Shown here in pieces: positions 1-64,000 of a DNA stretch of 64,000 bases. Location: positions 1-64,000 of IMG/VR virus record IMGVR_UViG_3300031994_000045; one strand, written 5' to 3'. The notes under the pieces are model-generated. The model worked only from the letters and a program-made list of their open reading frames with translations. It was not told where the DNA came from and made no database searches. Numbering within the stretch: the stretch's first letter is position 1; each line of letters starts with the position of its first letter. A program made the translations under genes and the position numbers. This DNA comes from a virus. Lineage: Duplodnaviria; Caudoviricetes.

Positions 1-3000
1 TGGCTGGCCGCGGCTGTTCCCGCGGACTGGCCGGCTCGCGCCGCCCGCGCGTCCCCGGTCCCGGCGTCCGCCACCTGGCCGAGAAGCGATTCGTCCGAGA
101 GGACTTCCTCGATCTGCCGCTTCCTCTCGAGTATCGCGTCGCGGGTCGCCTGCGAATCCTCGGGGTGCCGTTCCGGCTCGTACTCCCTGAAGTACCGTAT
201 CGCGTTCAGCAGTTCCCTGGAACGGCCCGAGATTATCGGCGTGTCGTACTTGCCCGGGTTGGCCACGAAGTCGTCGTACATCGCGTTGAACCCGGCCGGC
301 GTGCCGATATCGGTCGCGAAGTGCTTGTACATCGTCTTCCGCAGGTTGCCGAGCTCCGCCGCCATCTCCGCGTCGTTCGCGGCGTAATACAGCCCCCGCT
401 TCGACCACGTGTCCTCCGATCCCGGTATCTTCTCCTCCTGCGGATCGATCGGCTGCCCCGTCTGCCGCTGTATCAGGTTGAACCCGTGTCCAAGGACCTC
501 GTGAAACGCGGCGTCCAACTGCGAGGACGGCAAATAGGTGACCCCGCTCGTCCAGTGAGCCGCCCTGTCTTTCTTCCTGCCGCGTGCGCGGGCGATGACG
601 GAGTCCGCGTCGGAGCCCCGGACCACCGGGTCCCGCTCCGTGAAGACCTGCTTTAGCGGGTTCATCATGTCGAAGACGTAGTTGCCCGCGGATCCCTTCT
701 TGAACGTGCCGAAAACGTTCGACACGTTGCGCCCCGTCTTTCCGGACTTGTCCCTCCCGCCGGCCGCGAGCCGCTTTGCGACGACCGACTTCTGGATCTT
801 GTCCGCGTCGTCCCCGTAGAAGTAGGCCATCATGTCGTCCACGCTCGCCGCCGACTTCGGGTCGGCCAGCACGTGCGACAGGAGAGCCACGTCGTCCGGG
901 TGCTTGTATTGGCCCGTCCCCGGATACGTGGCGAACAGGTCGTCGCGCGGGTGCAGCGCCTTGTGCGCTTCCGCGACCGCACGGATCCCCGCGGCCCGGT
1001 CCGTCTCGTTGGCGATCTTCAGCTTGCGCATGTTGTCGATCGCCCTGAGGTACTTGGCTTTCTTTGGCGAGTCGCCGCCTTTGTTCGCGGCTTGGACCGG
1101 CGGCTCCTCGGGCGGCGGCTCCTCGGGCGGCGGCTCCTCGGGCGGCGGCTCCTCGGGCGGCGGCTCCTCGTCCCCGAGGTCGTAGAACCCGGCGGCCTTC
1201 GGGTTGCGCCTGAAGAACTCCAGGTCCTCCTCGGTATGGCCGCTCGACACGACCGGAATCCCGAACAGGACGTCAGGCACGTCGTCGGTCGCGAGGAAGT
1301 TCGAGAACGCCTCGCCTCCCTTGCGGTCCTGCTGGACGTCCACGGAGCGGAGCGGGCGGTAGGTCTCGTCCGCGAAGTGCCGCTCGAACAGGTCTTCCGT
1401 CAGCTCGTCCGACAGCCACGGGTCTTCGCGGGTCTTGCCGAGGAAGTCCTTGACGGCCGCCCTCACCTTCGCGTTCTTCTGCTGCGACCAGTCGACGTTC
1501 GCGTCCTTGTACTTCTTTTTGATCGACTGGAGTATGTCGCTGCGCTTGCGGTTCAGGCGATACAGCGAGCGAAGGGCGGCCTTGGCCGCGCGGGCGTTCA
1601 CCGTGTCGCGGGCGGTCCTCGGCAGCGCGTCGAAGAGCCGTATGTATTCCTGCGACGTGACCTGGCCTAGCGCCGACGAGAGGATCTCGTCCGGGTCGAG
1701 CCCGTTCATGCGGGCTTCCTTCATGACGAGCGTGCAGAGTCGCGCGAGCTTCGCCTTGTTCGACGGGAACGACCACGCGTCGTTGTGCCGCGAGTCGCGG
1801 ACGAAGTCCAGGAGGATCTTCTTGATCTCCTTCTGGGACCGCGTCTTGGACGTGCCCTGGTTGACCGGGCCCATCATGCCGAGGAATCCCGTGTCCGGAT
1901 GCCCGGCGACGGACGCGGCCGAAAACGGCAGGAACCCCGTGAGGAAGTTCGTCAACGCGTTCACGTCCGGGTCCAGGCGCATCGTGAAGACACGCTCGGC
2001 GAGGGTCAGGTCCTCGAACTTCTTTCCGAAGCTCTGCCCGCTCACGGTCCCCCATATCCCCTCGATCGTCTTCTGGAGCGGGATCGACGTCTTGCTCATG
2101 GCCTGCGACCATCCGTCCGTGAACCAGCGCCAGAACTCGTCGTTCTGCTTGCCGAAGTGCATGTACTGCCTGCGGAGCCCCGTCGTGTTCGCGTCCCTGC
2201 CGACGCCCTCGGACGCCGGGATGAGCGCGCCGATGTTCCGGCCGGCGAATCCGCCCGCCAGGGTGCCCCACCATTTCCTCGTCACGGCCGCGCCGGCGAC
2301 GGTGCCGAGGACCGTTGTCACGAACGGCCACGCCCCGCGCTTGTTCTTTATGTCCACGAGGGTGGACCCTTGCCCGGCGGCGGCGCCGGCGGCGGCGCCG
2401 GCGGCGGCGCCGGCCAGACGCATCCACCACGGCCCCCTTGCCGCCAGCGCTCCTATCGCGGCCCCCGCGGCGCCGGTGCCCCACGCCGCCGATCCGTCCG
2501 TGCGCCCGAGCAGGCGCGTGATCGGCGTGACGTCGAACGCGAGGGATCCGACCTTGGACTCGTTGAAGAAGCAGAGCCACGGCATGTCGTCGATGCCGAG
2601 CGGGTCCTTGTCGTCCTTGTCGTCGGGGTCTCCGACGGCGCCCGACTTCACGAGCGCCGTGGCGAGCGCCTTGATCCCCAGCTGCAGGAAGACCGGGACG
2701 CCGATTTTTATGATCCCAAGCATCCTCAGCCAGCGGATGAACGCGCGCTTCCTCGACGCTTCCGTCGTATGGTGCCCGCCGAACAGCAGGTCCGTCACGA
2801 CCTCGCCGGTGCCGGCCACCCACGCGCCGAGCGTCCACTGGTAGGAGAACATCCCGAGCCGCAGCAGCTGCTGCATCCCGGGGGTGAGGAACGCGTAGCG
2901 CTCCGGCTGGATGCCGCCGATCTCGGCGTTTATGTACGCGGAGTGCCTCCGGAGCTCCCGCACGGGGTCGAACGGACGGCCGGCCTTCTCGCATTCCTCG

Positions 3001-6000
3001 CGGAGACGGAACATGGTCTGCGCGACCACGGCCATCTTCACGCCGTTGAGGACGTTGGAGAACGCGTATTCGCCCGGGTTGTGGAACGCGGCCTTCATCG
3101 CCGAACGGACTTCCTTCGCCATCTTCGTGTGGCCTTCCGCCGCCAGCCAGCGGCTGATGCGGTCTATGTCCGCGTCGATCGCGCCCTGCCGGTTCGTGAG
3201 GGGGTTCATGACGGAGTCCGTGAGCGGCATGTTGATCATGTCGCAGAGTTCGCGCATGTACCGTATCGACGGGTCGTCGGACGTGATCGAGTTCAGGAAG
3301 TCCGCGAGGTACGGCAGGTTCTTCCTGAAACCGAGGAACTCCCCGACCTTCGTGCCCGCGAGCCGCCGCGCGAGCTCGGCCGTGTTCTTCCGGTAGCCCA
3401 TCGCCGTGTTCCAGAACCCGCACGCCGCGACCGGCGACTCGAACCTGGTCGCGAACGCGAAGAACGCCGAAAGCCCGACGGACGCCGCCTTCGAGTACGA
3501 CACCGCCCGGTCCAGCACGCGGTGCCCGGCCCACACGGTCGGGGCCTGCACCGACCCGAACAGCTGCCGCAGGTAGCCCTCGGCCTCGCTCCCGTTCGGG
3601 CGCATGATCCGCTCGCTCGCGAACTTCGTGAGTATGTTCACGTCGTCGCTCGCGCTGTCGTCCGCGCACCAGATCTCGTCGAAGAGGCCGCGCGCCCCGA
3701 TCTCGTCCGGCGGCAGGAGATGGTAGCGCGCCCTGGCGTCGTCCTTGGACTTGGCCTTCGCGAGCGCGCCGGCCGCGGTCGCGATCGTCTGCATGTTGGC
3801 GAACCCCGACTTGCCGGCGTCGTACTTGACCATCCCCTCGACGGACCGCAGCCTGTCGAGGACGAACCTCGCCGTCGCCTGCCAGAACTCGTCGGGGAAG
3901 AGCCCCTGGGAATCCTCGGACGGCTTGACGACGAAGTTCGGCGCGCCGTCCGTGCCGACCGTGGTCAGCATCTGCGCGAGGCAGCCCCGGAACCGCTCCG
4001 CGTGCGTGATGGACTCCGCCATCGACCGGAGGCGCTCCGTCGCGGACTTGGAGGATCCGAGCCTGCCCTGCGTCCGGAACATGTCCTGCTCGGACATGGA
4101 GCAGATCCTGCCGCGGACGGCCATGTCCGCCTCCTGGTCGTCCATGATCTTCTGCTGGAGCTGCCCGTGCAGGTGGTACACGTCCACGAGGTCCTGCCCG
4201 CCGTAGCCGCATCCTCCTTCGTCGTAGGCCATGGTGAGCGGGGTGTGCCCGGGGTCGCCCGGGTGCTGGGCCTCCGTGACGACGTGCGCCGTGATGATGT
4301 CGAAGACGAGCCGGTCGAACTCGAACACCGTCATGTCGGGACGGATGTCGAACCCGTAGATGCTGCTCGTGTTCGCCTTCGTGTACTGCCCGGCCAGGAT
4401 CTGCTTGAGGAAGCCCTCGACGTCCGCCACGCGGCGGCCGAGCCCGAGGACGCGGCCGAGGTACATGAGCTGCCTGTTCGAGATGTTGGCGAGCTGCCCG
4501 TCGCTCCCGCGCTCGAACGCGCGCAGGTTCCCGAGGATCTCCCTCTCCTCCCTCTGCTCCATGCGCCCGTCCGCGTTCCGCACGTAGTACCGGTGCGTGA
4601 CCTCCTTCGAGTGGCTCTTCAGCGTGTCCTGCAGCGCGGCGAACTTGTTCCTCAGGTATTCGTCCGTGGAGATCTCCCCGCGGAACAGCTCCCTCGCGTT
4701 CTTCAGCTTGTCTACGATGGCCTGGTGGTGTCCGGTGCCCGCCTCGAACCAGAGGCCCTGCGCGCGTCCCGACAGCGCGCGTCCGGCGTCGGACTCCGAG
4801 AGCCACCTCGACCGCCCCGCGATCCTGTTGAGCCTGTTGGCCTCCGCGGCGACGACCTCCGCGAGGTAGTCCATGTCGAGGAGCTCCGCGCGCCGGCCGC
4901 CGTTCCTGATTAGCTCCGTCCGGTAGGAGTCCTCGGACTCCCATGCGCGCTTCACCTCGGAGGCGGGGACCACGAGCACGACGCGGTGGGTCGCCGGGGA
5001 CTCGTCGGCGAGCCCGGCTTCCTTCAGGATCTTCGTGACGCGCTGGTGGAAGTCGGCGTCGCCGATGCTCACGCCCGCGGTCCTTGTCCGCCCGACGTCG
5101 TGGAACGCGTTCAGGATCTGGACGTAGATCCCGTCCGCCCTAAACGCCTTCCTCTTCGCGTCCCACCCGAGCACGGACCACGGTATGCCCTCGAGCATCC
5201 GGTTGAGGAGCTGGTCGAGGTTCGACGGGCGCCCGGCGCTCGCCACGTGCCCGTAGAGGCGGTTGAACACCGCGTCCGGAGAGTACGCGTGGCCCTCCGC
5301 CGTGGCCGAGGCCATGTCTCCTTCGGCCTCCCCGGCGGCCTCCAGCACCGACTTGAGGATCCTCCGGTCGACGTACGGGATGTCGTAGCCCGTGTACACG
5401 CCGTGCCCGTTGGCCATGCAGGCGACCGTCTGCGACACGAAGTGGACGAGGTTCACGTCCTCCTTCGTCATGGCGCGTCCGGCGGTCTTGGCCGCGAAGT
5501 TCACCAGCCCGAGGAGGATCCCCCGCACTCCCGCGACCTTCTTCACGGAATGGCGATGCCTTTCCTCCACGGTGAACAGGCCTTCCTGGCCCCCCTCCCC
5601 GAAGCCCAGGTCCGACGTGCCTTCCTCTATCTGGTTGGGCGACTCGCCCGGCATGCAGTTCGCCGCGAGGTAGAAGTCGATCATGTTCGCGACGCGGTTC
5701 GTCTCCTCGGTGGCCGCGTTCAGGGACACGTCCGTCATCATGTCGCGGAACGACCCGCCGTAGAACTGCTTTTGGAGATCCGACGCCTGCCACGAGCCGG
5801 GCAGCTGGAGTATGAGCTGCGGCGTCAGGTCGGGCTCCAGGACGCCCTCGGCCGGAGGGACCGCGAGCGGAACCTCCTGCGTCGGCGCTTCCCGCGTCGG
5901 GATCGTCGCGTCCTCCCCCGGCGCCGGCTGGTCCATGCCGTTCTCCCGCACGAACCTCCGCACGACCTGGGCGACGCCGAGCGCCTTCGCGGCCGCGTCG

Positions 6001-9000
6001 ATCGCGTCCTGCACGAACCGCGACGAGAAGTCCAGCGTCCCGTTGCTGAAGCCGAACGCCTTGCCGGGCTCGTACCGGACGGACCCGTCCGCGTTCCTGT
6101 GCATGGTGGCCGCGCCCGTCATGTACTGGAGGATGTATCCGAAATAGTTCGACGCGGCCTGCTCCTCCGTCCATCCGCGCCGGTCCGAAAGTCCCCAGAA
6201 CGACGGGATCATGCGCTTCAGGGGCTCGCCGTTCATGACGGCCGTGACGAATCTCACGACGTCCCGCGCCCTGTGCCTGCAGGCCTCGGCCTGGAGCTCG
6301 AACCGCTTCGCGTCGCTCTCCACGTCTGCGGGAACGTCTCCGTCCGGGAACCTGGCGCGGGCCGCTTTCGCGCGCGCCTCGAGGTCCTCGGCGGCCTTCA
6401 TGAACCAGTCCCGCGACGCTTCCGCGCGGCCGCGGCAGAACTTCGTCCACTCCGACGGAAGGACCCCGGCGAGCATGTTGCCCATCACGTAGTCGGCCGA
6501 CGCGAACTGGGCGGGGGACGACGGGACGTCTTCCGGCGTCCCGTATTCGTTCTCGGCCTTGCGCCGGACCGAATACTCGTGCACGAGCCTGACGACGAAG
6601 CCGGCGATCTTCTCGTCCGACATGAGCTGCCGGCCGAGGTCGTTCAGTGACTTCGTCCCGTCCTCCGCGTAGTCCCAGACGTCCAGCCCGAGCAGGTCGC
6701 ACACGTGCCCGAGGAGCCGGTGCGCGGTGTATGCCATGAGCTCGAAGTCCGGCCCGTCCGCCTCCCCTACGTCGGCCTTGTCCCTGAACTTCGCCACGGC
6801 CTCCGCGATCCCCGCGAGCTCCCCGCCCGCCGGGCTGCCCACGCGCTCCAGCGCCTCCCTGAACAGGAGGGACACGCGGTCTCCGACCGGGACGGACGGA
6901 TCCGATATCCGCTGGGCCAGCGTCGGGCCGGAGGGTTCCTCCGCGGGCGGCACCGGAGGCTCCTCCTTGCGGCCGAGCATGTCTCCCATGACGGCGTCGA
7001 ACGTCGTGCGGTTCTCCGGCTTCCTGCCGTCCCTGACGAACTTCGAGGCGGCAGCCTTCACCTCGTCGAACCCGCAGGCTCCCGCGCGGAACTCGGCGAC
7101 CAGCCCCGCGAGGTCCGTTCCGTCCGCCCCGATCTCCCCCTCCATCCGCTCCCACCTGTCGGGCGCGCCGAAGTCCACCTTTTCGCCGAGGAGCAGCTTC
7201 TCGAGCTTCTTCTCCTGCCCCGCGTCGAAGTCCAGGACCTCCTTCGCGTCGCGGCTCGAGAAGTCGGCCGAGATCATCATCTTCATGAACACCGGGACGC
7301 CCCGGGCGTCGTACGCGAGAGCGCAGGACAGGTACGCCTGCGCGGTCCTCCTGAACTTCTCGAACGTCCTCTCCGGGTCTCCGACCCCGGCGGCCAGGAG
7401 CTTGCCCCGGACGGTCCGCGCCTTGTCCCCCGTCACGTAGTCGGCGAACGCGTCCGCGGCCGCCTCCTCGTCGAAGCGGCCGTCGGCCGTCCGGTACTTC
7501 TTCAGCAGCGCGGCCTCGTCCTCGGCCGTGCAGACGCCGGTCTTGCGGTAGAAGTCCAGCATCTGGTGGAAGTACTCGTGGAAGAGGGTGTGGTAGGACG
7601 AGACGTCCGACAGCCTGATGACGCCCGAGAGGGCCATGAGGGCCCTCGTGCCGAGATACTTCTCGGCCTTCGCCGACGTGCCCTTCACGCGGAGCCCCGC
7701 GGCGTTCGCCATCGCGACGCGCTCCTCCTCGGTCAGGGACAGCAGTTGCTCCATCGTCATCTTCTGCCCGGCGCCGTCGTTCACGGCGTTGAGGATGGCC
7801 TGGTTGTAGTTGGCGTTGTTCGCCTTCATCGCGAGGAAGTCGCCGTAGGAAACGTACGTCACGACCTCCTTCGTCTCGGCTTGCCCGTTCTCCTCGACCT
7901 TGACCTTGCGCGTGATCCTCAGGAGGTTGGACGGGACGCCGTTCCCGCCGACGACCCGCTCGACCTTGCAGCCGGTCTCCTTCGACCAGTCCCCGAACAC
8001 GCGCTCGAGCGCGGCGCGGATGTTGGCCTCCGGGTTCGCGAAGAACCTGTCCTTGTCCTCGGGATGCTTCCCCTCGAGGAACGAGAACAACCCCGTCCGC
8101 CGCAGGCGCGTCGCGGCGAACGACGGATCGGCGACGCCGGACCGGATCGACGGGACGTCCAGCGCCGTCGCGGCGTGGGTCCGCACGAAGTCCTCCAGCT
8201 TGTCCCGCATCAGCGGGCTCGAGATCCGCGACAGCGCGTCGCCTCCGTCGAACGCCGCGCTCTGCGCCCACTCGGAGAACTGGCTCCCGTAGTCGGTCCA
8301 CGCCCGCTCGAGCACCTCGTCGATGGCCAGCCCGTAGTTGAGCAGCTCTCGCTTCCTCGCCTGGGCCCCGTGCCCGCCGGCGGGGGTGGCGGCGACAGTG
8401 CTTTCGCCGTACCTCCCCGTACGCATGCCGCGGGCGCGCCTGCCGAACTCCGTGAGGTCCCAGGAGAACGCCTTCGTCTCGTTGCGCGGGTCCGCGAGCC
8501 ACGCCGCCATCTTCTTGTCTGCCGCGAACGCCGCGAGCTTCTCCGACACGAAGTCGTTCACGGCCTCCTCGATCGTGAAGAACTCCCCCGACGGGCCCCT
8601 GAACCGGACGCCCTTGATCGACGTCTGCGGACGGAGCTTGTGGCTCTCGCCCTCCATGTACGCCGACACGATCCTCCGCCGGCCGGGGCCCCCGGGCGCG
8701 AAGCGCCCGTCGCGGACGGACGTGTCCCTGTGGATGGCGTGCGGCGACGTGTATTCGGCGCGCGCGATGTAGTGCAGGACGGAGAATGGGGTGACGAGCC
8801 GCTGCGTCGCGGGGTGGTCCAGGTCCTCGCGCGTCACGTCCGGCATGCCGGACAGCGCGGCCACCCTGCGGGCCAGCCGCAGGTCGAGGTCGGCATACGC
8901 GCTTCGGCGCGCGAACAGGTTGTATCCTGCGGCGCCCCTCGGGACCATGCAGAGCTGGCGCAGCACGGGATTCTGCGTGACCGCCGCGCCCCACCGCTCC

Positions 9001-12000
9001 CACTCGTCCACCCTGCTTCCGAACATGGCGGACACGTTGCCGCGGGCGTTCGAGTCCCGCGCGGGGTCGAACTCCTCGTTCGCGCACATCGAGAGCTGGA
9101 TGCAGGCCGCGAGCTCGGCTCCGGTGAACGTCGTCCCCCCGTGGCTGCACACCACGTCCTTCCTCGCCGCGAGCTCGTTGTACCCGGCCCGGAGGACCTT
9201 CGCCGCGTCCGCGCTCGCGCGGAGGACGAGCGACACCTCGTTATGCTCGCCGACCTTGACTTCCTCGCCGGTTTCCGGGTCCGTCTCCGTTATGTCGCGG
9301 GTGTCTGTGCGGAGCATGGTGAGCATGTCGACGACGTTCTGGGACATCCCCGCGGCCGTCCCCTTGTTCAGGGCCGACTCCACGAGGCCCTTCAGCGCCT
9401 TGGCGAACGACGGGTACTTGTCCTCGACCAGCTTCCGGTACGGGGCGTCGCCGAACTTCACGACGCCCGCGCGCACGCAGCCGAGCAGGTGGGACAGGTT
9501 CAGCCGGTTCGCCTGGATGGTGCCGAGGTCCGCGTAGTCGGCCGCGAACTCCCGCGCGACCGCGAACAAGACGGCCTCGTCGTTCGCGGGGTTCCCGTCC
9601 GAGTCCGCCACGGACATCGGCCGCTGCCCGGTGCGCCCGAGGTACCACGCCCAGTCGGAGGGGTCTTCGGTCGCCTCGGCGAAGTCGGCGTCGCCGCGGA
9701 CGCTGCGGTCCGACGCGAGCGGGTTCCGGCCGGCCGCGATGTCCTCGAGCCGCAGCGCGGAGGCCAGGTAGGCGACCGACATCGCGTCGCCGGTCGCCGC
9801 GCCTCCCTCGATCGCGCGGTCCATCTTGCCGAGGAGCCCGGTCGCCCGCGACCCGCCCATGCGCAGGGCCGTGTCCGGCGAGAGCCCGTCCTCCGCCTCC
9901 AGCAGGTCGTTCAGGGCCTGGAACATGGACAGGTCCTTCTTCGCCGCGGCGAGCGCGGAGCCGATGTCCGCGGACGACAGGAACCGCAGCCCGACGGCGA
10001 CCCTCGTCGCCTGGTCGACGCCGGCCGGACGGCCCTCGTTCTTCCCCTCGAGGACGTCGGCGATCGCGAGCGCGGTCTCCTCCCCGAAGATCTCGGAAGC
10101 CGGGCGCCATCCGAAGTTGTACGCCTCTTCACGCGCCTCGGCGTCGATGAAGTCGGCTTCCGTCATGCGGAGCGCCCTCGCGATCCGCTTCATCAGCCGG
10201 TCGATGCACGTCGGGACCATGTCGCCCCTGGCCGGACGCATGCTGTCGTTCGCCGCGTCGAACCAGGAGAGCTCCTTACTCAGGCTGGGCATGCTCGGGA
10301 CTGGCTTGGAGTACCGCCCGTACTGCCCCTCGCCGATGTCGAGCCTGCCGTCCTTGACGAGCAGGACGTCCTTGAACGCCTGCTTTGCGATGCACCCGCC
10401 CTTCGTGAGGACCATCGTGTTGTACATGCCGAGCAGGGTCTTCCGCTCGTGGCCCGGCAGGAACGTGTCCCTCGTCGAATGGTCGAAGAACGCGTTGGCC
10501 TTCGCGATCAGGCTCGGAAGCGTCGTGTCCGACGCGTGCAGGTCCCTGGCGAACCCCACGAGCTTCACGAAGAACCACTTGTCGTCCCACCGCGGCCCCG
10601 TGCCGGAGCGCTTCGGCGCGTCCCGCCACGCCTTGTATTCCTCGTTCGCGTCCGAGAGGAGCCTTGCCGTCAGGCAGTTGAGCAGCCCGGCCTGCCACCC
10701 GGCGCGCGGCGCGAACAGGTCCTTGACCACGTCGAAGAGCGCGTTCGAGATCTTGTCCAGGTGCCCGATGAAGTCCTCGATCGGGCGGTACCCGTCGCGC
10801 TCCTCGTAGAGCGCGGGGGCAAGCCCGCGGACGTAGGAATCCGTGTCCGCGTAGCCCGCGAGGTGCTCGAGGGCCGCCTGGAGAGACACCGCGACGCCCC
10901 GAGCCCTGTTCGCGTCGGCCGCGCAGCCCGAGAGATACGCGGCGACGCGCGGGTCGAGCAGGTCCAGCGTCGGCATCGTGTGGGACGAAAGCTTGTCGAT
11001 GCACCGCTGGAAGACGTCGTAGTACTTCTCTCCGGCGACCTCCGACTCGTCGACGCCGAGGACCTGGGCCGCAAGCGCCGCCGCCTGCCCTCCCGACTTC
11101 ATCTCGACGTCGCCCGAGACGACCTTCGTCCCGACGGGGCTGCGTCCGGCGAGCCCGTAGTCCGGGATCGTCCTGTCCCCCGCCATCGCGTTCACGTCCC
11201 TCGCCCCGAACTCGTCCTGCGTCTCGTTCGGCATGAGCCTGTAGTTGTCGATCTCCTCCTGGAGCAGCACGTTGCCGATGAGCTCGCGGAAGCGCCTGGA
11301 GGGCTTCACGATCTCCAGCCCGTCCTCGGTCGTCTCCGTCTCGAAATACTGGGGGAACCGCGTCCGGAGCAGGTTGACCGTGTCCTCGGCCCCGAGGAAC
11401 CTCTCCAGGTCGTCCGCCCCGGCGTCTTTGAGGCGGGCCGCGATCGTGGCGTGGATCTGGTCCAGTATCTCGCGGTCGTGCCGGTCGAGCCCCTTCCCGG
11501 ACATGACGGTGCCGGTCGTCGAGTCGCCGTCCGTGTCGGACCCCTGCGAGGAGTTCATCAGCGGAGGAAGGATGTACAGCGCGTGCTCGTCCACCTGCCC
11601 CGACGCCCGGTCGAACAGGACCGGGGCCTGGACGCGGATGAGGCCGCCCGCCGACTCGAAGTTCCCCGACGGACGCCGGTCGCCCGCGAAGAACGCGCCG
11701 CCGAGATAGATCGTGCGCGCCCCGTTCTTGTCCATTTTCTTCTGCGCGTCCCCGCGGAACTCGAACGCGGCGAGGTCGAACCTGTCGCCGCCGTACCGCT
11801 TCCCGAGGAACAGGTCGGAGAACGAGACCTTCATGAGGTCGCACGACGGGTTCTCGTTCAACGTCTTCCCCGTGTAGTCGGTGAACGCGGCACCCAGCGT
11901 CTTGGCCATGGCCGCCTTCACCTTCCTGTTCCGCATCCGGTCGAACGCCTCGATGTACGCGGCGAGGTACGCGACCGTCTCCATGTCCTCGTCGGCCGGT

Positions 12001-15000
12001 CCGTATGCCTGCTCCAGCCTCTCGAGGTTGGCCCGGTACGCGTCGGACCATTTCCGGCTCCCGTCCACCGCGGCCCGGATCTCCGAGAGGTCGGCGTTCT
12101 CCGCGAGGTGCCACCCGTAGCGGAACGACGGGTCCAGGACGTTCACCTGCCCGGACGAGTAGGACCGGCCGACGCCGAACGCCGCCTTTTCGGCGGCGGA
12201 GAGGACCCTCGCGTCGCGGAAGCAGTCCTTGTCGTACTCCGTGACCCCGGCCGAGTACGAGTATTTGACGGAGTACGTGCCGTCGGGGTTCCTCGTGACC
12301 TCGCTGGCCTTTATGCCCGAGCCCATGAGCACCGCGTGCATGGAGTTCACGTAAGGCTTCATCGCGCCCGCGTAGACCGTGTTCATCCTGCGGACGACCC
12401 GTTCCTGGACGTCCTGGCTGTTGGGATGGGCCCTGTACGCGGCGTACAGGTCCGGGTCCGTCTTGAGCAGCTCGTCGAAGAACCCGGGCTGCGCGCGCAG
12501 GAGAAGGTACGGGACCGCCCGCGACACGTTGATCGCCTTCGTCGCGTACCACGTGAAGTCGGCCTGCTCCGGAACCATCTTGCGGAGCCTGCCGGAGTTC
12601 GCGACGACGTCGCGCGTCCAGTTGGTCGCGGCCGGATGCTCGAGGGAAGGCCTCGCGCTCGCGTCCGAGTTGGCCATCACCTGGCCGGACATCGTCCGCG
12701 TGAAGTAGCGGACGCGGAACCCGCCGGACTCGCTCGCGACGACGGAGAGCTTGTCGCCGTCCTCCGTCCCGTAGTCCTGGAAGAGCCCCGACTCGGAGAG
12801 CGGCTTCGTCTCCGTGACCTCGCCCGTCGGCAAGGTCCACTCGGCCTCGATGGACCCGACGTCCTCCGCGGACAGCTCGGACTTTCCGAGGACCTTGGCG
12901 ATGACCGGGAGCATGGTCGTCACGGACGCCGCGGAGTTCTTGAACGCGGGAACGACATGCGACCCGCCGAGGAGGGATTTCGTTTCCCCGTCGACCCGGA
13001 CGTCGAACCTGACCACGTTCCCGCTGGCGTCCTTCTCAAAGCCGAACGTCAGCTCCTTCCCGCCGGCCTTGACGGTGAACGGCTTCCCGGATTTCGCGAA
13101 AAACCCGCACTTGTCGCTGACGGACCCGGTCTTCACCGTCTCCATGTCCGTGCAGAACGTGGTCGACGACTGGAAGAACGCCTCGACGAGCTTCAGCGCG
13201 GATTCCCTGTACGCCTTGTCCTCGTCCGAGAGCGGCGCGTCGGGGGCGGGAAGGTCGAGCGTCCCGGCCTTTATCCCCAGGACCTCCTCCAGCCTCCGGC
13301 GCTGTACGCGGCAGGCCTCCGCCAGGGCGCCGGACGCCGGGACCGGATCGGTCTCGTACATGCCGAGCCCGAAGTCGTGGCCCTGTCCCTTGAAGAACGT
13401 CGCCCCGAGCACGTGGTTCTTGAACGACACCGCGCGCGGATTGGTCGCCTGCGCGCGCTGCGACTCGATCAGGAACCCGTGGTTCAGGTACATGCCGAGG
13501 TTCTCGCCGGCGTCGTTCCCGGAGACCAGGATGTCGCAGTACAGGCCGGGCGTGACCCTCGTCTTCCCGTCCATCGCGGTCACGGCCGCGTCGACCTCCT
13601 CGACCTTCCCGTCGACGGTCTTGCGCATCCGGTCGCGGTAGGTGGAGAACGGGACGCCCTGCGCGAGCAGCACCTGGACACGCTTGGGGTCGATCTGGTC
13701 GCATCGCGCCGCCGACGCGACGACCGCGTATATCGCGCGGTAGAGCGCGTCACGGTCGGCGGACGTCCCGAGCTTCGTCCCGTCGTCGACCGACCTCGGG
13801 AGGACCCCGTCCTCGACCATCTTCCGCGTGACCTTGTTCATCGCCCAGTCCGCGCCGGCATGGATCCCGTCCAGGACCGCCTGCATCACGTCGTGCGGCA
13901 GGCAGACCGAGTACACCGTGGGCTTCTCGCCGTGGTACAGCTCGAAGTAGCCCGTCCTCGTGTCCCCGCGCACGAACCGCGAGATGTTCGCGTTCGCCAC
14001 GATCACCGACAGGTGCTGCTTGTCCACGAGCCTGTTGTTCTCGAGCCTCGCGCCCGCCGTCACGGCGACCAGCCGGGTCCCGTCCTCGAACCGGCCTCCC
14101 CTCTGGAGGTAGCCGTCGAGGACGCCGAGCGGGGCCAACAGCCTGTCCTCGATCGACATCATCATGACCGGGGGCGACGCCGGGGTCGCCGTGACCTGCG
14201 AGGAGTCCTCGATGGACTCCTGCCGCGTGCCGGACATGCGCTCCACGGAACGCGGGGCCGACGCCGCGTACAGCTTGAACACGGAATCGAAGTACGAGCT
14301 GACGGCGCCGCCCGTCATCGGGTTCTTGAACCACTGGTAGCGGGGCGCCGCCTGCGGCTGCGGGTTCCCTCTCGCGAACAGGCGCGCGATCACGTCGTCC
14401 GACAGCGCGCCCAGGAGGTCGCCGACCGAAAGCCCCGCGCTCACGATGTCGTCATACTGCTTTTTCTTTTCCCCTTCCTTGCTGAAGGTCGGCGTGCGGC
14501 CCTTCGTCCACGTCGCGCGCTGTATCGCGGCGATCGTCGGGTTCAGGACGGCGGAGCTCAGCAGCACGCACCTGGACTTGAGCTCGGCGCTGGCGGCGCA
14601 CGACCTGAACAGCTTCAGCAGGTCGTCCGCCACCCTCTCCATCGCGGCCCCGTCCTTCGCGTTGCGCACGGACCGCACGATCCCGCCCAGGAGATCGGGG
14701 CTCCGGAGCGCGTACGCGAGCTCGTTCCCGGGTCCGATCACGTAGTCGAGCGCGTCCGCGACGGCGGCCATCCGGCGGACGAGCGCGTTCGCGAACGCGA
14801 CGAGCGTCTTGTCGTCCCCGGGGGCCTTCTCGAACGCAGCCCCGATCTCCGCCCCTTCGTTCGCGGGGGCCAGTATCCGCTCGAGCTCGGCTATCGTCTT
14901 CGTCCTGAGCGGGGTCCCCGCCTTCTTTTTCTCGAACCATTTCGCGGACCCGGTCGAGAGCAGCAGGTTGTCGAGCGCGGACATGGTGTCGGACATCTGG

Positions 15001-18000
15001 GACGACGTCGACCCGGACGGGAACAGGCGCGACATCGCGTGCGCCACGGACGCGCGGACGGAAGACACCGACGCGAGGCCCGCGCTTCCGAACGTCTCGA
15101 GCGCGCCGACACCGTCGTAGTCGGCGACGGTGACGCGGTTGACGTCGAGGGGCGCCATCGTGCCGATGAGCGCGAGGGCCTGCGCGCGGCGCTTTCCGGT
15201 CGGCGGGATGTTCCGCACGCCGTTCAGGACGAACGCGAGCTCGTCGTGCCCGGCCGCGTGCAGCGCCGACACCGCCCTGGAGAGGACCGCTCCCGTCGTC
15301 TTCAGCTCCGCGGAGACCCGCGACGAGTCATTCCACACGCCGGTCGCGTCGGAGATCCTCCCGGCCGCCATGCCTTCGCGCATGGAGCGGAACACGTTGA
15401 ACAGCATCGCCAGCGGCTCCAGCGCGTCGGCGCGGGACAGCCTCGCCGACCTCTCGGCCTCCAGCTCGGCGATCGCCTTGGCGGGCGCGTCCGTCCCCTT
15501 CAGCCGCTCGGCCTCGGCGGCCAGCCTGTCCGCGGCCTCCCTCTCGGACCGGACGATCCTCGGGATCTCCGCGGACATCCGCGCGAGGACCTGCGTGAAC
15601 GCGCCGCCCTCGGACGGGAACACGTAGCTCCACTGCCGTCCGAGGTCCATCAGATCCTTGTTCTCTATCGCGGCGTTGGCGCGCTTCGCGTCGAAGAAGA
15701 TGTCCTGGTTCCCGGAGCCGTCCGAGATCGTCTCCGCGAGCGAGGCCCACTCCTCGTCGTCCTCCCTCTCCTCGGCGTTCCCCGCCCCGGCCGGCTCCTC
15801 GGCTCCCGCCGCGTCCACGAACATGGACCATATCCGGTCCGCGTTCGCCTTGTAGCATCCGCGCTCGAACAGGAACCGCAGCACGGCGAACCTGGACTTG
15901 AGGGCGAGCTCGCGCCCGCCGGCGCCCCCGGGCGGCGCGCTCATGAGCCCGGGGCTCAGGAACTGGAGGTTCCGCCCGGCCGCGAACGCGACGTCGTCCG
16001 GGACGACGTCCGCCGCCTGCGGGCGCACGACCTTCTTGTCGGTCTCCGAGGACACCCCGCCGAACCCGCTGCCGATGCTGGGGGCCTCGTCGCCCGCGTC
16101 CCCGCCGCTGTCGAGCGCGTGCTTGAGCACCCTGTACATCTCGGCGGAGCTGATCGTCCCGCCGGCCTTCCTGTACGCGTCGGCGAACGCCTTGCACTTT
16201 CCTCCCACGGCCCCGACGAGCAGGCGGACGCTGCGCTCTGCGACGTCGGTGAAGTTCGTCACGGTGGTGTCGTCGATGACCGGAGGGACGCCGGAGGCGA
16301 GGCCGGCGGCGCTCATGTCCCCGGGGACACCGTACCACTGGAACACGATGCCCGTCTTCCTGGCCCCCTCCCCGCCGTTCGTGAACATGGCGGACGCGCG
16401 CGACGCCATGAGGTCCGGGCCGGAAGGGGCGAACGCGTCGAGGAACCGTCCGAGCCCGTCGAGCCGAATCGTGCCGTCCGGACCCGCCGCGTCCTCGGCG
16501 AAGAACCCCCGGCCGCCCAGCGACTCGTCGAGGGCCGAGATGAACAGCGGGACCCACGGGCTGCGGCGGGCCCGGTCCGCCACGTAGGCGAGCTCCGGGC
16601 CGAAGAGGAACCCGTTGCCGTACTCGTTCAGCCCGCGCTCGTCGCTGAACACGGCGATCGCGGCGGCGATGGCGCCCATCCTGGACGGGTTCACGCGGCC
16701 CGGCGAGGAGGGCAGGCTCGCCATCGCGTCCCTCACGCGCTGCGCCATCTCGGGGTTGCTCTCCTCGAGCTCGGCGATCGCCTCGTCCGCGGCGCGGGTG
16801 AACGCCTTGTCCATCTCCCACAGGATCCCGACGAACGCTGACGGGTCGTCGAACGCCTTGCCCGGCTTGGTCGCGGCGTCGTAGATGGCGCGAGAGAACG
16901 CCGAGCGGAGCATCATCTCCGAGTCTCCGCCGGAATAGTAGTCGCTCTGGAGGTAGACCGTGTCGCCGAACGCTATGCCGTTCGGCCGGATCGAATAGCT
17001 CGCCTCCCCGCGGTACGTGTCGGTCGCGGCCGCGTCCTGCTTGCTCCTCGTGATCCCGAAGCGCTCCAGCATCAGCTCGGCCGCGCGCTCGTAGCCGACG
17101 GAGAACGGATCCCCTTCCTTTCCGGTACCGCGCACGTACCGGCGCGTGTCCGCGTCGTCGGCCGCGAGCTCGGCCGCGAGCGCGCGGGCCGTCGCCTCGT
17201 CGTCGTCCTGCTGCCAGTCGCCGTCCACGCGACGAAGCTGGGGCGGGTAGAGAAACTCGTCCACCTCGATGCCCTTCTCCCGATCCACCCCGTAGAACGC
17301 CTCGTACGCGGCGCGGGCCTTCTCCCTGGTCCCGTGCAGCAGGAGGACGAGGGACGTCGCGTCCTTCGACGAGATGCTGTCGTTCTGCAGGACCGCGAAC
17401 TCGCGCCACCTGGCGACGACGCCCCGCCGCACGGTCGCGACGCCGTCCGGACCGACCTGCGTCACGTCGCTGTACGTTCCGTCAGGCTTGGGGACGGGAA
17501 CCTCCTCGAGCATCCGGGTCGCCTCCAGCACGGTCGAGCCGGTGACGGACACTCCGTTCGCGGTCAGCGTGACGGTCCGGTTGCCGTCCTTGTCGCGACC
17601 GTACGACGTCGTCACCTCCGCGGTCGTCCCGTCGGCGTACTCGAACGCCATCGGCTCCGAGTTCTCCACGGCGAGCCGGAGCTGCGTGAGGTACTGCGCC
17701 GCGGCCTGCTGGTTCTGCGCCTCCGTGAACTCGCCGTAGTACCGTCCCATGGCGAACATTACCCGGCGGAGGTCGCCGGGGGCCAGCTGGCCGGAGGGGT
17801 CCAGGCGAAGAAGCTCGCCGACGTCCACCGTGCGGGCGAGGGCCGCGTCCTTCACGTGCCCGCCGTTCGACACGTCGTACACGGCGCGCATGTTGCGGAA
17901 GGCCGGCATCGCCCTGATCGCCGCGACGACCTCCGGCGTGTTGCCGTAGCGCATCGCGCGGTCGTAGCTGAAGGCTATGCTGGTCGTGTTGACATTGCCG

Positions 18001-22312: not shown

Positions 22313-22341
22313 ATTATACCACACGACCGACGCGCGGTCTA
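22313..22341 (-). promoter_or_regulatory. sigma70-type extended -10 promoter for the giant gene
   Basis: TAGACC-17 nt-TATAAT, with TGTGG immediately before the -10, 26 nt upstream of the ATG. Confidence 0.7.
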
Positions 22342-30093: not shown

Positions 30094-30123
30094 ATTATAG
30101 CACAAAGCCCCTCGCTCGCGCAA
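30094..30123 (-). promoter_or_regulatory. sigma70-type extended -10 promoter for the capsid gene
   Basis: TTGCGC-18 nt-TATAAT with TGTGC before the -10. Confidence 0.7.
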
Positions 30124-36035: not shown

Positions 36036-36065
36036 ATTATAGCACACACCGGGCGGAGAAGTCAA
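36036..36065 (-). promoter_or_regulatory. sigma70-type promoter for the portal operon
   Basis: TTGACT-18 nt-TATAAT with TGTGC before the -10. Confidence 0.8.
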
Positions 36066-38727: not shown

Positions 38728-40511
<1,784 letters not shown>

Positions 40512-40512
<1 letters not shown>

Positions 40513-41237
40513 CAGACGTTGACCTCCGCGCTGACGACCGTGGCCCCGTCCGGGTCCGTCTCGGTCCCGCCGGGGACTCCGGCCCGCAGGTCGGCGTAGT
40601 ACGTCCCGGCGACCTTTATGATCCTGAGGAGCCACTTCCGCGACGGAAGCGCGAACGAGTCCTGGTGGCCCCACGTCGGGCGGGAACCTCCCACGAGCAC
40701 GTCCGAGAACGGAAACCGGCTTCCGTCCGTGGACTCGATCGCCACGTAGACGTCGAACGGGCCGTCCGGCGGGACGATGGAAAGCGGCTCGTACACGACA
40801 GGCGACGCGAGCCTGACCTGCGTCATGCTCGCCATCTGCACGACGCGGGACGAGATGACCCCGAGGTCGACCTCCGTCCTCTCCTGCGACGGCTGCCCCG
40901 GCGAAGACCCGGTCGGGAGCCCGGTCACGGACGCGTCGGCGAGCAGGATCGTGTCGCCGGCGAGGACGACGCGGAGCCTCGCGGAGGCGTCCTCCGCCCA
41001 CGAAGGGACGGAAAGCGTCCCGACGCGGACGCCCCGCCGGAGCGGATCCGCGGCCAGCGCGCAGGACGCGTGCTCGACGCCCGACGCCTCCAGGGCGAGC
41101 GACGCGTCGGACGACGTGTCCTCCCGGAACTCGGGGGCGTCGACGAAGATGCTGTACGTCGAACCGGCGAACAGCCTCTGCCCGCCCGGAAACGCGGCGA
41201 GCGAATCGTTCAGCTTCCGTAGCCTCAGCTCGGGCAT
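40512..41237 (-). CDS. Hypothetical tail-module protein (241 aa)
   Basis: ORF translationally coupled to the collagen fibre gene. Confidence 0.65.
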
Positions 41238-48591: not shown

Positions 48592-48655
48592 ATTATACCA
48601 CGGCCCCGCGAACCGCGCAAGCGAAGTTGCGCGAGGCTCCGACCTTTGGTAGAAT
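48592..48655. promoter_or_regulatory. Back-to-back divergent sigma70-type promoters
   Basis: Minus strand: TTGCGC(48615-20)-17-TATAAT(48592-97). Plus strand: TTGCGC(48627-32)-17-TAGAAT(48650-55). Both have TG extensions. Confidence 0.75.
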
Positions 48656-56452: not shown

Positions 56453-56482
56453 ATTATACCACAATTCCCCGCGTCCCGTCCA
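56453..56482 (-). promoter_or_regulatory. sigma70-type promoter, probably giving a leaderless mRNA
   Basis: TGGACG-18-TATAAT (TGTGG extension) followed by CCGTCCC-ATG; no RBS. Confidence 0.7.
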
Positions 56483-56707: not shown

Positions 56708-56729
56708 TTTATTTTATCCTTGGTTGCGC
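56708..56729 (+). promoter_or_regulatory. 22-nt early motif, copy 1
   Basis: TTTATTTTATCCTTGGTTGCGC; the sequence repeat is certain, its promoter role is inferred. Confidence 0.75.
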
Positions 56730-56809: not shown

Positions 56810-56816
56810 TCCCCTT

Positions 56817-56848
56817 CCCCGAGCCCGAGTGGGTTCGGGGTTTATTTT
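56817..56848 (+). terminator. Intrinsic terminator
   Basis: CCCCGAGCCC-gagt-GGGTTCGGGG followed by TTTATTTT. Confidence 0.7.
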
Positions 56849-56862
56849 ATCCTTAATTGCGC
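56841..56862 (+). promoter_or_regulatory. 22-nt early motif, copy 2
   Basis: TTTATTTTATCCTTAATTGCGC. Confidence 0.75.
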
Positions 56863-57340: not shown

Positions 57341-57348
57341 CCGCCCCA

Positions 57349-57380
57349 GCCCCGTCGCGCCTCGTGCGCGGCGGGGTTTT
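57349..57380 (+). terminator. Intrinsic terminator (identical hairpin at 57777)
   Basis: CCCCGTCGCGC-ctcgt-GCGCGGCGGGG followed by TTTT. Confidence 0.8.
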
Positions 57381-57381: not shown

Positions 57382-57403
57382 TTTATTTCATCCTCGACTG
57401 CGC
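57382..57403 (+). promoter_or_regulatory. 22-nt early motif, copy 3 (degenerate)
   Basis: TTTATTTCATCCTCGACTGCGC. Confidence 0.6.
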
Positions 57404-57776: not shown

Positions 57777-57811
57777 GCCCCGTCGCGCCTCGTGCGCGGC
57801 GGGGCCTTTTT
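57777..57811 (+). terminator. Intrinsic terminator
   Basis: 28 bp identical to 57349-57376, followed by CCTTTTT. Confidence 0.8.
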
Positions 57812-58044: not shown

Positions 58045-58066
58045 TTTATTTTATCCTTGGTTGCGC
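58045..58066 (+). promoter_or_regulatory. 22-nt early motif, copy 4
   Basis: TTTATTTTATCCTTGGTTGCGC. Confidence 0.75.
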
Positions 58067-58690: not shown

Positions 58691-58730
58691 CGCTCCGCCC
58701 GACCGGTCGTCGAAGGGTAGGGTGGCTACC

Positions 58731-59200
58731 ATGTGCTATAATTGCAAAAATGGGCATTTTTGGCGCCACGGGAGGGTTTGGCGTGATGTTATGTCAACTA
58801 GCGAATTTAGAGTTTTCTAGTTGCGCATACTTCACGCGGGGATTTGGCGCGAAAGCGCCCAAGTTTCCCTATGTGTCCGCTCATCCCGCTATTTTCTACT
58901 ATATATTATTTCTTAAGAGTGAAAAAATATATATAAATAAGAGTATAAGAGAGTAAAAAGCACCTATAAGAGAATAAGATTTTTTTTTCGATAGAATTTT
59001 CAGTACTGCCACAACGAATAAAATAAACGAATATCTTGGCAAGGTGTAGAGCGATAGTACATTTTCCGTGATTCATGAAATGCGCATATAGAGATTTCCG
59101 AATTGTCTCGGACGAGCTGTACGAATTGCAGTTTTGAGCACGGCAACCGATCCTTTACCCCACACCACATTTCACTTCCCATTTATTTTATCCTTAATTG
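58731..59200. other. AT-rich non-coding tract, candidate replication origin
   Basis: Sharp drop in GC, A/T runs, ATAAGA repeated four times at about 58937-58979, and TGTGCTATAAT at its left edge. Confidence 0.5.
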
Positions 59201-59203
59201 CGG
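59182..59203 (+). promoter_or_regulatory. 22-nt early motif, copy 5
   Basis: TTTATTTTATCCTTAATTGCGG. Confidence 0.75.
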
Positions 59204-60334: not shown

Positions 60335-60442
60335 GGGCGGCGAAGGACGCGATTCCTCGGGCAGTCGACGTTCGCCGGCTTCATGACTGCATGCCAAAAA
60401 GAAAAGCCGGACGACTTGCCGCCGTTAGCGGCCTTCGACTTT

Positions 60443-60588
60443 GGACACGGCACGGGTCCGCCGAGGCGGAAGGTTCGACTCCTTCCCGGCGGAGAATGGT
60501 GGTAGTCGAGGCGAGGGGACCCACTTACCCGACCCGAGGCCGGCCGGTGGCGCAGCGGCAGCGCGCGTGCGGCGTGCCGTGTCCTTTT
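60443..60588 (+). ncRNA. Circularly permuted tRNA-like RNA (YrlA-like topology)
   Basis: A 12-bp terminal stem encloses, in order, a T-arm (GAAGG-TTCGACT-CCTTC), an acceptor 3' strand, a linker, an acceptor 5' strand and U8-G9-D-arm (GCGC-AGCGGCA-GCGC); followed by TTTT. Confidence 0.6.
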
Positions 60589-60625
60589 CCCTCTTCAATC
60601 AACCGAATAAATGAAAGGAAAGCCA

Positions 60626-61015: not shown

Positions 61016-61164
61016 CAACTTCGCCAGACCCGCAACACGCGTCTGGACGCTCGGGGAGCCGACGTGCGGTGGCGCGACGTCGGCCCGGAAAGTCGTCACC
61101 GACAGAAGACGCCGGGGCCAGCAGGACCCCGTGAAAGGCCTGCGCAAGGCGGTGGGAGCCCGCT

Positions 61165-61221
61165 TGCGCCTCTCAGGGAAAGCCCGGCGCCGGGCAGGCG
61201 GTTCGAGTCCGCGGAGGCGCA
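61165..61221 (+). ncRNA. D-armless tRNA-like element
   Basis: TGCGCCTC/GAGGCGCA stem enclosing a GCCCGG/CCGGGC hairpin and a T-arm GCGG-TTCGAGT-CCGC. Confidence 0.4.
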
Positions 61222-61593
61222 TCCTTGATTTTGGCCGGGATTCCGCTAACGGTACCTAATGCGGGGAGATTCCGGCCTTTTCGATTTCCTTCCCGTCCGG
61301 AAGGGACAGGAGCCGCGAGGACCCCGCGGCGCCGGCCATGTGAGCCTGAAACCACGGCAAGCGCCTCCGCGAGGGGGTTCCGTCGATACGGTCGACGGCG
61401 CATGACAGGCTAAAATTGCACTCGTGCCGCCCAGGGACGGTACATCCTGAAGGCGGGAAAGACGGATCCAGTCAGCCACGGACAAGTGCGTCTCCGTGCA
61501 ACTTTTCATGCAGACCGATGAACCCAGCCGGCCGGACGCGGCACGGAGGCGGAGGTCTGCGCCGGGAGCTATTTGACCTCACGAAAGGAGAAC

Positions 61594-62574: not shown

Positions 62575-62709
62575 ATGGGTATCCTCTCGGACGCCACCGT
62601 GCTGGCGCTCATGAACCACCCCGAGACGGTCGAGCCCGACGACCTGCGCATGCAGGACGAGATCGGGTTCGAGGCCTTCATCGAGGCCTGGAGAAGGGGG
62701 ATCCTGTGA
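62575..62709 (+). CDS. Small hypothetical protein (44 aa), not in the ORF track
   Basis: AAGGAGG RBS; MGILSDATVLALMNHPETVEPDDLRMQDEIGFEAFIEAWRRGIL; GTGA-coupled to the next gene. Confidence 0.65.
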   Translation: MGILSDATVLALMNHPETVEPDDLRMQDEIGFEAFIEAWRRGIL

Positions 62710-63107
62710 GCGCGAAGTTCACGCGTGTAGTGGAGGCCCTGGAGCGAGACTCCGGGGTCTCCGCGAGGACCGCGAACTGCCTGAAGAGGCTTTGCGCGGA
62801 GTTCGCGACGGAAGACGACTTCTTCCGGGCGACGAGGGGGGACCTGATGAGGGTCTGGGCCAAGCTCGAGCCGAACTCGAAGAAGGGCCTCGGCCAGAGC
62901 CTGTTCGACGCCTTCTCGAAGGCGTCCGCGCTCTGGACGTCGTCCGACGTCGAGAAGGCCGCGAGCCTCCCGGACCCGCTCGCGAGGCCCGCCACGCAGG
63001 AGCTTCTCCTGTGGATGGCGAGCTTCCTGGAGTCCAACAAGGTCGAGCAGATGTCCTTCGGGCGGCTGCTCGACATCTGGGACCAGGTCCAGGAGGCGAA
63101 GAGGTGA
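62706..63107 (+). CDS. RNA polymerase alpha-subunit CTD-like protein (133 aa)
   Basis: VSARTANCLKR...EDDFFRATRGDLM...KGLGQSLF resembles the alpha-CTD consensus LSVRSxNCLK...GDLVQxTExxLL...NLGxKSL. Confidence 0.55.
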   Translation: MSAKFTRVVEALERDSGVSARTANCLKRLCAEFATEDDFFRATRGDLMRVWAKLEPNSKKGLGQSLFDAFSKASALWTSSDVEKAASLPDPLARPATQELLLWMASFLESNKVEQMSFGRLLDIWDQVQEAKR

Positions 63108-63843: not shown

Positions 63844-64000
63844 ATGAAGCGCATAATCAACGGTCGTCTCTGGGACGACGCTTTCATGAACGACGTCGGA
63901 TCGCGGACCTTCGACAGGACCGACCCCGTGACGCAGGAGACCTGCACCTACCGCGAGGAGCTCAAGCGCGAGTACGTCCTCAAGGCGGGCCACACGCTCG
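63844..64000 (+). CDS. Hypothetical protein, 3'-partial (MKRIINGRLWDD...)
   Basis: AAGGA/GAGG RBS; open to the window edge. Confidence 0.65.
   Translation, partial: MKRIINGRLWDDAFMNDVGSRTFDRTDPVTQETCTYREELKREYVLKAGHTL

Follow-up and report, generated by a model that had tools for sequence, protein, structure and literature searches.

We analysed a 64,000-nt stretch of IMG/VR virus record IMGVR_UViG_3300031994_000045, called the window here, which makes up 64% of the ~100-kb genome (67% GC) of an uncultured tailed phage from the ruminant gut. A single gene at the end of the minus-strand block encodes a giant protein of 7,433 residues, and the core of this protein is almost certainly a two-barrel RNA polymerase (RNAP), as judged from its predicted fold and its invariant motifs. 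On the plus strand, the first small genes are preceded by five copies of a 22-nt motif, which are candidate promoters for this enzyme, and promoters of host type lie before structural and replication genes. Taken as a whole, a scheme in which a virion-borne polymerase starts early transcription and host RNAP reads the later genes is the reading that we consider rather probable. Feature coordinates are collected in Table 1.

The polymerase core was modelled with AlphaFold2 (AF2) together with 18 relatives, at a pLDDT of 80.5 and a pTM of 0.80. A Foldseek search of the PDB with this model gave one significant match, 6vr4_A (E 4.1e-5), which is gp66, a virion RNAP, from the crAss-like Cellulophaga phage phi14:2. 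The rows after it were Pol IV, a P23-45-type gp64, P23-45 gp96, QDE-1, RDR2 and Pol II. Re-alignment to gp66 with VIA gave a Z of 11.9 and an rmsd of 5.6 over 604 residues, with model residues 1-1162 against chain residues 554-1641. For other RNAPs, the VIA Z was at most 7.8 (QDE-1 7.8, RDR2 7.1, P74 gp62 7.0, P23-45-type gp64 6.8), with Pol II Rpb1 and E. coli beta-prime at about 6.5-7. Among the predicted viral structures of BFVD, the best named matches were proteins of crAss-like phages and of phi14:2. At the sequence level, the core had no match in the PDB at E ≤ 10, either as a single sequence or as a 5-sequence profile, and tblastn against 50,697 GenBank phage records gave none at E ≤ 0.01. 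The modelled fold places the polymerase in the gp66/QDE-1 structural clade, as a sequence family of its own.

The motifs expected of such an enzyme were found at conserved positions. Around the DTDGD loop, the pattern QGSD[TFM]DGDS was invariant in 18/18 long relatives (~30-70% identity). R3537-x-PSGN and K2956-x-H-x7-K2966-G-Q were likewise invariant, among relatives sharing as little as ~28% identity. The two lysines are located in a beta-hairpin of the model (model residues 235-251), ~600 residues upstream of DTDGD. The spacing between R-x-P and DTDGD resembles that between RAPTLH and NADFDGD in beta-prime (RpoC). A second phage RNAP was looked for as another DxDGD open reading frame (ORF), and there was none in the genome. 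An earlier note on this DNA, made from the sequence alone, had described an ORF of more than 7,400 amino acids (aa) with RNA polymerase motifs in the virion module, and had read it as a crAss-type enzyme within one huge polyprotein. The ORF and the enzyme type were borne out: the ORF is real, its motifs are invariant, the two-barrel fold was found by AF2, Foldseek and VIA, and the nearest solved structure is gp66.

The giant protein could also be chiefly a tape measure or an ejection scaffold, with the polymerase-like core as an inactive structural relic. Ruler-polymerase fusions have been published (PMC10770324), and weak matches to phrog_167, a tape-measure family, were found at both ends of the protein, in short Gly-rich parts (aa 243-553, E 2.6e-5; aa ~6549-6939, E 7.5e-6). 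However, relatives of less than 30% identity have kept each of the three aspartates, the R-x-P element and the two lysines without change. Such invariance of catalytic motifs is not expected of a relic, and we therefore regard this alternative as very improbable.

The giant gene crosses the join of the contig. The 21-mer CAGTCCGCGGGAACAGCCGCG is found near both contig ends (window 1-40, genome 100090-100129), with a few differing bases beyond it. Because the ends overlap by this repeat, the record closes on itself, though it is listed as linear in IMG/VR. The last residues of the giant protein and the TAG stop are at genome 100043-100108; with the 21-nt overlap collapsed, the frame ends in ...GSARSKGDR, followed by TAG. 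This tail is exactly that of a database protein (P0027, 7,433 aa), which is encoded on another version of the contig, 100,061 bases long. A joined ORF of 8,329 codons was rejected, as the head-to-tail join behind it had ignored the 21-nt overlap and shifted the frame. GC content at third codon positions (GC3) above 0.8 was taken as the mark of real genes in this 67% GC genome. Immediately downstream of the giant gene is a separate gene of 871 codons (genome 97426-100041, minus strand; L002:15426-18041). It has its own AAGGAGA ribosome-binding site and ATG, and no Pfam match.

Relatives of the giant protein form at least 36 clusters, with lengths of 6,900-7,900 aa and on contigs of up to 101 kb. 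Conservation in the family begins near residue 100 and extends to about 7,050, and the C-terminal 330 residues are variable. At this C-terminal position, relatives carry ART-PolyVal, lysozyme or PF04002 domains, which are of types typical of injected 'polyvalent' proteins (PMC5512222). Two hydrophobic segments are present, one near each end. Between the polymerase core and the second of these lies the motif HEYFH, and both H-E-x-x-H and the EE pair at aa 4940-4941 are invariant across relatives. The model of this module was weak (pLDDT 61.9) and had no Foldseek match. In the VIA-wide comparison, the top rows (Z 3.2-4.7) were mostly zincin peptidases, including PprI, neurolysin, CapP, lethal factor and PPEP, and a zincin at aa ~4900 is likely on this basis. 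About 22% of the phage genome is spent on this one, putatively delivered, protein.

The 22-nt motif, TTTATTTTATCCTTRRTTGCGC, was found in five copies, all on the plus strand and nowhere else in the 100-kb genome; there were 0 in 100 shuffles. This agrees with the earlier note, which had reported five copies of a non-sigma70 motif before the first early genes. Each copy is 25-110 nt upstream of a ribosome-binding site and start codon. Copies 1-4 head one-gene cassettes, each of which is closed by a terminator consisting of a hairpin and a T-run. Exact-motif scans of metagenome and viral contigs gave 16 single matches in unrelated DNA of other GC content, and these were rejected as chance.

Counterparts of the motif were found in two related genomes. 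In the relative L030, with a large terminase (TerL) 80% identical to that of the window, four TTTATTTTGTCCGTGTCTGCGT-like copies are on the early strand of the same divergent junction, beside an AT-rich stretch. In a distant relative from IMG/VR (G001; RNAP ~27% identical, giant ORF of 7,059 aa), (C/T)ACTTTTTTCCTGATTCG occurs three times where the two gene blocks diverge, in DNA of low GC; a pair of copies is directed towards the early genes, and the third towards the gene that comes first on the other strand. The twelve copies from the three genomes align on the T-run, TCC and GCG. In L030, the 'TATCCT' of the motif reads TGTCCG, and both the A and the T needed by a sigma70 -10 hexamer are lost. 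The L030 version of the motif is without a usable sigma70 -10, whereas the evident host-type promoters of the phage have the form TGnTATAAT. Our impression from three genomes is that the motif may keep its place while its sequence drifts between phages, as expected if it co-evolves with the polymerase. We infer that the motif is a promoter.

An AT-rich non-coding stretch separates motif copies 4 and 5. TGCTATAAT occurs at its start (58734-58742, plus strand), and L030 has a low-GC stretch at the same place. This stretch might serve as an origin or mark a physical end of the genome, or it might give rise to a non-coding transcript. A GC-rich repeat (..ACCGGT..GACCGCCCTCCCCRCCC) was observed at 56609-56643, 57817-57851 and 57958-57992, at a distance of ~90-100 nt ahead of copies 1 and 4 of the motif, and such repeats may be upstream binding sites. 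TAGGGTGGCTACC occurs twice (57909, 58718).

The motif might not be a promoter but a site for regulator, replication or packaging proteins (for example, iterons beside an origin or genome end that is rich in AT), or it might belong to the terminators. Its copies do cluster within 2.5 kb around the AT-rich stretch, two of them begin in terminator T-runs, and other repeats (families D2 and D5) are close by. However, all copies in the window are co-oriented with the genes that follow, at the short distance from ribosome-binding site and start codon given above, and three have no hairpin before them. The opposite-strand copy in G001 precedes the first gene of that strand, which is the behaviour of a promoter and not of an origin iteron. 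Taken together, a non-promoter role appears improbable.

Promoters of host type were recognised by the hexamer TATAAT. Of the 12 such hexamers in the genome, 9 have a TGn in front of them (binomial p = 1e-9), and for 9/9 of these TGnTATAAT sites a gene start follows at a distance of 7-40 nt. Five of these sites are before minus-strand genes of the window, one is on the plus strand (58737), and three are before replication genes outside the window. These sites resemble promoters that host RNAP would read by means of the primary sigma factor. The sigma70 extended -10 promoters that the earlier note had placed throughout the structural module were thus found again, and the replication genes have them too. 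The mRNA from the first late-strand promoter, which codes for a 1,120-aa protein (53083-56445, minus strand), is probably leaderless.

In the favoured scheme, the 7,433-residue protein would be a late product, made from the host-type promoter at the end of the minus-strand module. It would be packaged in the virion and would leave it with the DNA. It combines tape-measure-like and hydrophobic parts near both ends, the polymerase in the middle (aa ~2720-3900) and the HExxH module at ~4900. The polymerase module would start transcription at the five motif copies before the first small plus-strand genes, and the TGnTATAAT promoters, both those before replication genes (plus strand, 77-92 kb) and those before structural genes (minus strand), would then be used by host RNAP with the primary sigma factor. 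Packaging is suggested by the late-module position of the gene, its host-type promoter, its being the sole phage RNAP, the hydrophobic segments and the injected-effector domains of relatives. As the sole phage polymerase would be made late and the candidate promoters precede the earliest genes, the enzyme would have to travel in the virion. We infer catalytic activity, packaging and ejection, the pairing of enzyme and motif, and any proteolytic processing.

A real polymerase could instead remain in the producing cell and act there like P23-45 gp64, perhaps after excision, with the 22-nt motif read by host RNAP and a host or phage factor. Non-virion two-barrel RNAPs are present in P23-45 and many phages (PMC10770324), and the P74 gp62 and P23-45-type gp64 listed above are among the structural matches. 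Against this, the polymerase gene ends the late module behind a host-type promoter, no motif of phage-polymerase type precedes the late genes, and a scan of ORFs revealed neither a sigma-like factor nor any other in the set that it covered. The early motif without a usable -10 in L030 also speaks against it, and the fusion to hydrophobic and tape-measure-like parts, together with the injected-effector domains of relatives, fits a delivered protein. We consider a non-injected polymerase unlikely.

Several points weigh against the injected-polymerase scheme. By sequence, the polymerase core could be linked neither to a solved RNAP nor to one from GenBank phages, and model confidence at the DxDGD loop was moderate (block 861-870, pLDDT 62). 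Two motif copies overlap terminator T-runs, and part of their T-richness could serve termination. The block is called a 'late module' on account of its gene order, its strand and its promoters, because only the fibre and the probable terminase can be named. For phi14:2, no motif common to the early transcripts was found upstream of them (10.1101/2020.03.07.982082), and a strict promoter in the gp66 clade is for this reason without precedent.

Table 1 Features of the 64,000-nt window discussed in the text, with positions in window coordinates.
Feature	Position	Strand	Remarks
22-nt motif copy 1	56708..56729	+	before 17-codon ORF 56757-56810
22-nt motif copy 2	56841..56862	+	before ORF 56954-57340; T-run is the tail of terminator hairpin 56817-56840
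22-nt motif copy 3 (3 mismatches)	57382..57403	+	before ORF 57480-57770
22-nt motif copy 4	58045..58066	+	before ORF 58151-58588
22-nt motif copy 5	59182..59203	+	head of long plus-strand gene run
Hairpin and T-run terminator	57348..57378	+	near-identical copy 57777-57805 (family D3, 89% over 38 nt)
Non-coding, AT-rich stretch separating copies 4 and 5 of the motif	58700..59180	.	480 nt, ~35% GC
Giant ORF	22286..3	-	7,428 codons in window, 7,433 aa total, GC3 0.94
Gly-rich hydrophobic segment, aa 289-307	21366..21422	-	inside tape-measure-like stretch
Predicted two-barrel RNA polymerase core, aa 2720-3900	10587..14129	-	AF2 fold, Foldseek, VIA, BFVD
K2956-N-H-x7-K2966-G-Q, candidate two-lysine element of beta-like barrel	13383..13421	-	invariant
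R3537-R-P-S-G-N, R-x-P element, 47 residues before DTDGD	11661..11678	-	invariant columns
DTDGD, D3584-D3588, predicted metal-binding loop of beta-prime-like barrel	11523..11537	-	invariant motif
Candidate zincin metallopeptidase: HEYFH, aa 4903-4907, followed by E4940/E4941	7566..7580	-	motif and weak fold matches
Hydrophobic segment, aa 6520-6538	2673..2729	-	within aa 6400-6600, where family conservation is highest
Giant-gene promoter TAGACC-17-TGGTATAAT, then AAGGAGA and ATG at 22286	22313..22341	-	extended -10
Extended -10 promoter TGCTATAAT	30094..30102	-	motif scan
Promoter TTGACT-18-TGCTATAAT	36036..36065	-	extended -10
Extended -10 promoter TGGTATAAT	48592..48600	-	motif scan
TGGACG-18-TGGTATAAT, first late-strand promoter	56453..56482	-	7 nt before ATG 56445
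Probable large terminase (TerL)	36062..37903	-	homologs, Atlas neighbours, Walker motifs
Collagen-repeat tail-fibre-like protein	38728..41001	-	Pfam Collagen 3.8e-19; phrog_819 1.7e-35
Long hairpin with T-arm-like stem-loop GGAAGGUUCGACUCCUUCC	60443..60588	+	tRNA mimic of the earlier note
Small early-side ORF with SARTANCLKR	62706..63107	+	candidate alpha-CTD-like gene of the earlier note

The full record is a single virus record of 100,129 bases, with the window as bases 1-64000 and a CheckV completeness of 100%. It comes from a sheep-gut metagenome, and parts of relatives are present in bovine and goat gut runs. The genes form two blocks, one on the minus strand from ~56.4 kb down to base 3 and one on the plus strand from 56.7 kb to ~97 kb. 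The plus block contains a helicase, a PD-(D/E)XK nuclease, a family A DNA polymerase and a D5-like primase-helicase. In the minus block, a collagen-repeat fibre, a DUF285/BspA-type leucine-rich-repeat (LRR) protein, a CBM/peptidase-like protein and a probable large terminase were recognised. Eight further large ORFs of this structural block had zero Pfam or PHROG family matches, and the giant protein and ~45 other ORFs had almost none in Pfam and PHROGs. A PDB sequence search with the portal and capsid candidates gave no match, and megablast of 20 kb gave collagen-repeat matches only.

The TerL candidate has more than 293 homolog clusters, its Atlas neighbours include Terminase_6N/6C clusters, and it contains Walker A and B motifs (GCASCGKS, LVIDE). 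It had no match in Pfam, PHROGs or the PDB (the last searched with the single sequence and a 17-sequence profile), and none by tblastn in the same GenBank phage records. Neither the probable terminase nor the polymerase core had a tblastn match in these 50,697 records; on sequence comparison, the lineage is an undescribed one. A literature search for this lineage found no paper. The phage also does not appear to be a recognisable member of the Crassvirales, judging from the TerL candidate, which had no match in GenBank phages or PHROGs. One distant relative falls in a 'Clostridiales' metagenome bin, which is too weak for naming a host.

About one third of the terminase homologs (P0066, P0071-P0076 and others) carry LAGLIDADG or Hom_end inteins and are ~980-1,015 aa long, compared with 613 aa for the window's copy, which has no intein. 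Further along the minus block, a low-GC island (42800-46850, 52-61%) contains the DUF285/BspA-type gene (44219-45643, minus strand) and is probably a recently acquired host-binding cassette. Within the late block, a gene for 1,323 aa is on the opposite strand (48695-52666, plus), with a GC3 of 0.95 and strong GC and AT skew. Its product has internal repeats of ~100 aa (TARLGDDGLWE...) and no family match, and its counterpart in relatives (L028/L030) has 1,101 aa at the same inverted position. For the 1,120-aa protein adjoining the early region, a homolog search gave one distant match only.

Two smaller elements of the early side had been part of the earlier note's transcription system and were not sustained. 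An early gene resembling the C-terminal domain of the RNAP alpha subunit (alpha-CTD) had been proposed. Its ORF had a sub-threshold PF03118 match only, which covered positions 20-48 of the 67 in the model (62757-62849; E 0.03 per genome) and scored 11 bits where the cut-off is 23.8, and a control search gave sub-threshold PF03118 matches in archaea as well. There was no hmmscan Pfam match at E ≤ 1 and no PDB phmmer match at E ≤ 10. The string SARTANCLKR recalls the alpha-CTD helix, and the ORF may encode any helix-hairpin-helix protein.

The proposed tRNA-like RNAs fared no better. ARAGORN found no tRNAs in the whole genome. Rfam gave nothing at gathering score or at E ≤ 10, and RF00005 alone nothing at E ≤ 10, although a circularly permuted form would escape this linear model. 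The long hairpin matched none of the tRNA, tmRNA and Y-RNA-like models, and the fold of 60435-60595 was no better than that of shuffles (z -0.76). In the bovine metagenome contig X4, 60434-60587 is kept at ~90% identity and the preceding 76 nt are replaced. Contig X3 of another run skips 60461-61280; the hairpin element is thus present in some relatives and absent in others.

To our knowledge, injected two-barrel polymerases are known from two studied systems only, phi14:2 and P23-45, and we know of no promoter defined for a crAss-type enzyme. An injected two-barrel RNAP in a giant virion protein is a known kind, as in these two phages. Particular to the phage studied here are a separate sequence family, a widespread ruminant-gut lineage, a central position of the polymerase within a protein longer than 7,000 aa, and a sharp early motif with counterparts in relatives. 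It is conceivable, if on balance somewhat doubtful, that the lineage is undescribed at family level, that its 7,000-7,900-residue protein is a complete delivery-and-transcription device, and that the 22-nt motif, changing along with the enzyme, is the first promoter to be defined by its sequence for any polymerase in the gp66/QDE-1 clade. If true, this would provide a ready system for double-stranded promoter recognition by clamp-bearing single-chain enzymes. The enzyme comes with a statistically unambiguous candidate promoter, and the drift among relatives makes enzyme-promoter specificity directly testable. Defined pieces exist on both sides, aa 2720-3900 for the protein and 56.7-59.3 kb for the templates. 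The strategy would also be extended to a widespread high-GC lineage of the ruminant gut without a cultured or deposited relative.

The earlier note had further inferred that the phage, which it called a podophage, combines N4-like logic with a crAss-type enzyme. As a new combination this does not hold, since such a scheme has already been published for phi14:2 (10.1101/2020.03.07.982082) and for P23-45 (PMC10770324). In phi14:2, gp66 reads the early genes, and host sigma70 RNAP reads the middle and late genes (10.1101/2020.03.07.982082). Like the predicted polymerase of the window phage, gp66 (6VR4) is a two-barrel enzyme of one chain, and it is part of a large protein whose gene closes the structural module. 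With gp66 and the fused RNAP-zincin polyproteins of other crAss-like phages, the window phage also shares an associated HExxH module and host sigma70-type promoters at later genes. The similarity to gp66 is at the level of the fold only, the window genome has 67% GC, and the giant ORF has 7,433 aa compared with 2,180 aa in gp66. A strict early motif is present in the window phage, whereas none was found for phi14:2.

P23-45 is similar in other respects. The gp96 of this Thermus phage, a virion RNAP fused to a tape measure, is a giant fusion with membrane and metallopeptidase segments, and the phage has AT-rich private promoters before clustered pre-early genes as well as special terminators (PMC10770324). 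The likeness extends to a high-GC genome and would extend to a giant (5,002 aa in P23-45) virion protein in which a two-barrel RNAP is joined to such segments (8H2N), private AT-rich promoters before a few clustered pre-early genes, conserved terminators, and later genes read by host RNAP. However, the polymerase is N-terminal in gp96 and mid-protein in the window phage, and the structural match was weak (Foldseek E 0.21). The window phage also has no second DxDGD ORF, and its terminators are ordinary hairpins with a T-run.

The gp50 of coliphage N4 is comparable to the proposed enzyme as a giant ejected polymerase with few early promoters, an HExxH fusion (PMC5512222) and late genes read by host sigma70 RNAP. 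In contrast, the N4 enzyme (Schitoviridae) is T7-like, single-subunit and of a different fold; N4 has a second phage RNAP for its middle genes, and its promoters are hairpins on single-stranded DNA. QDE-1 and RDR2 belong to the same single-chain two-barrel clade as the predicted core (Z 7.8 and 7.1 over ~440 residues), but they are cellular RNA-silencing enzymes of eukaryotes, with another biological role.

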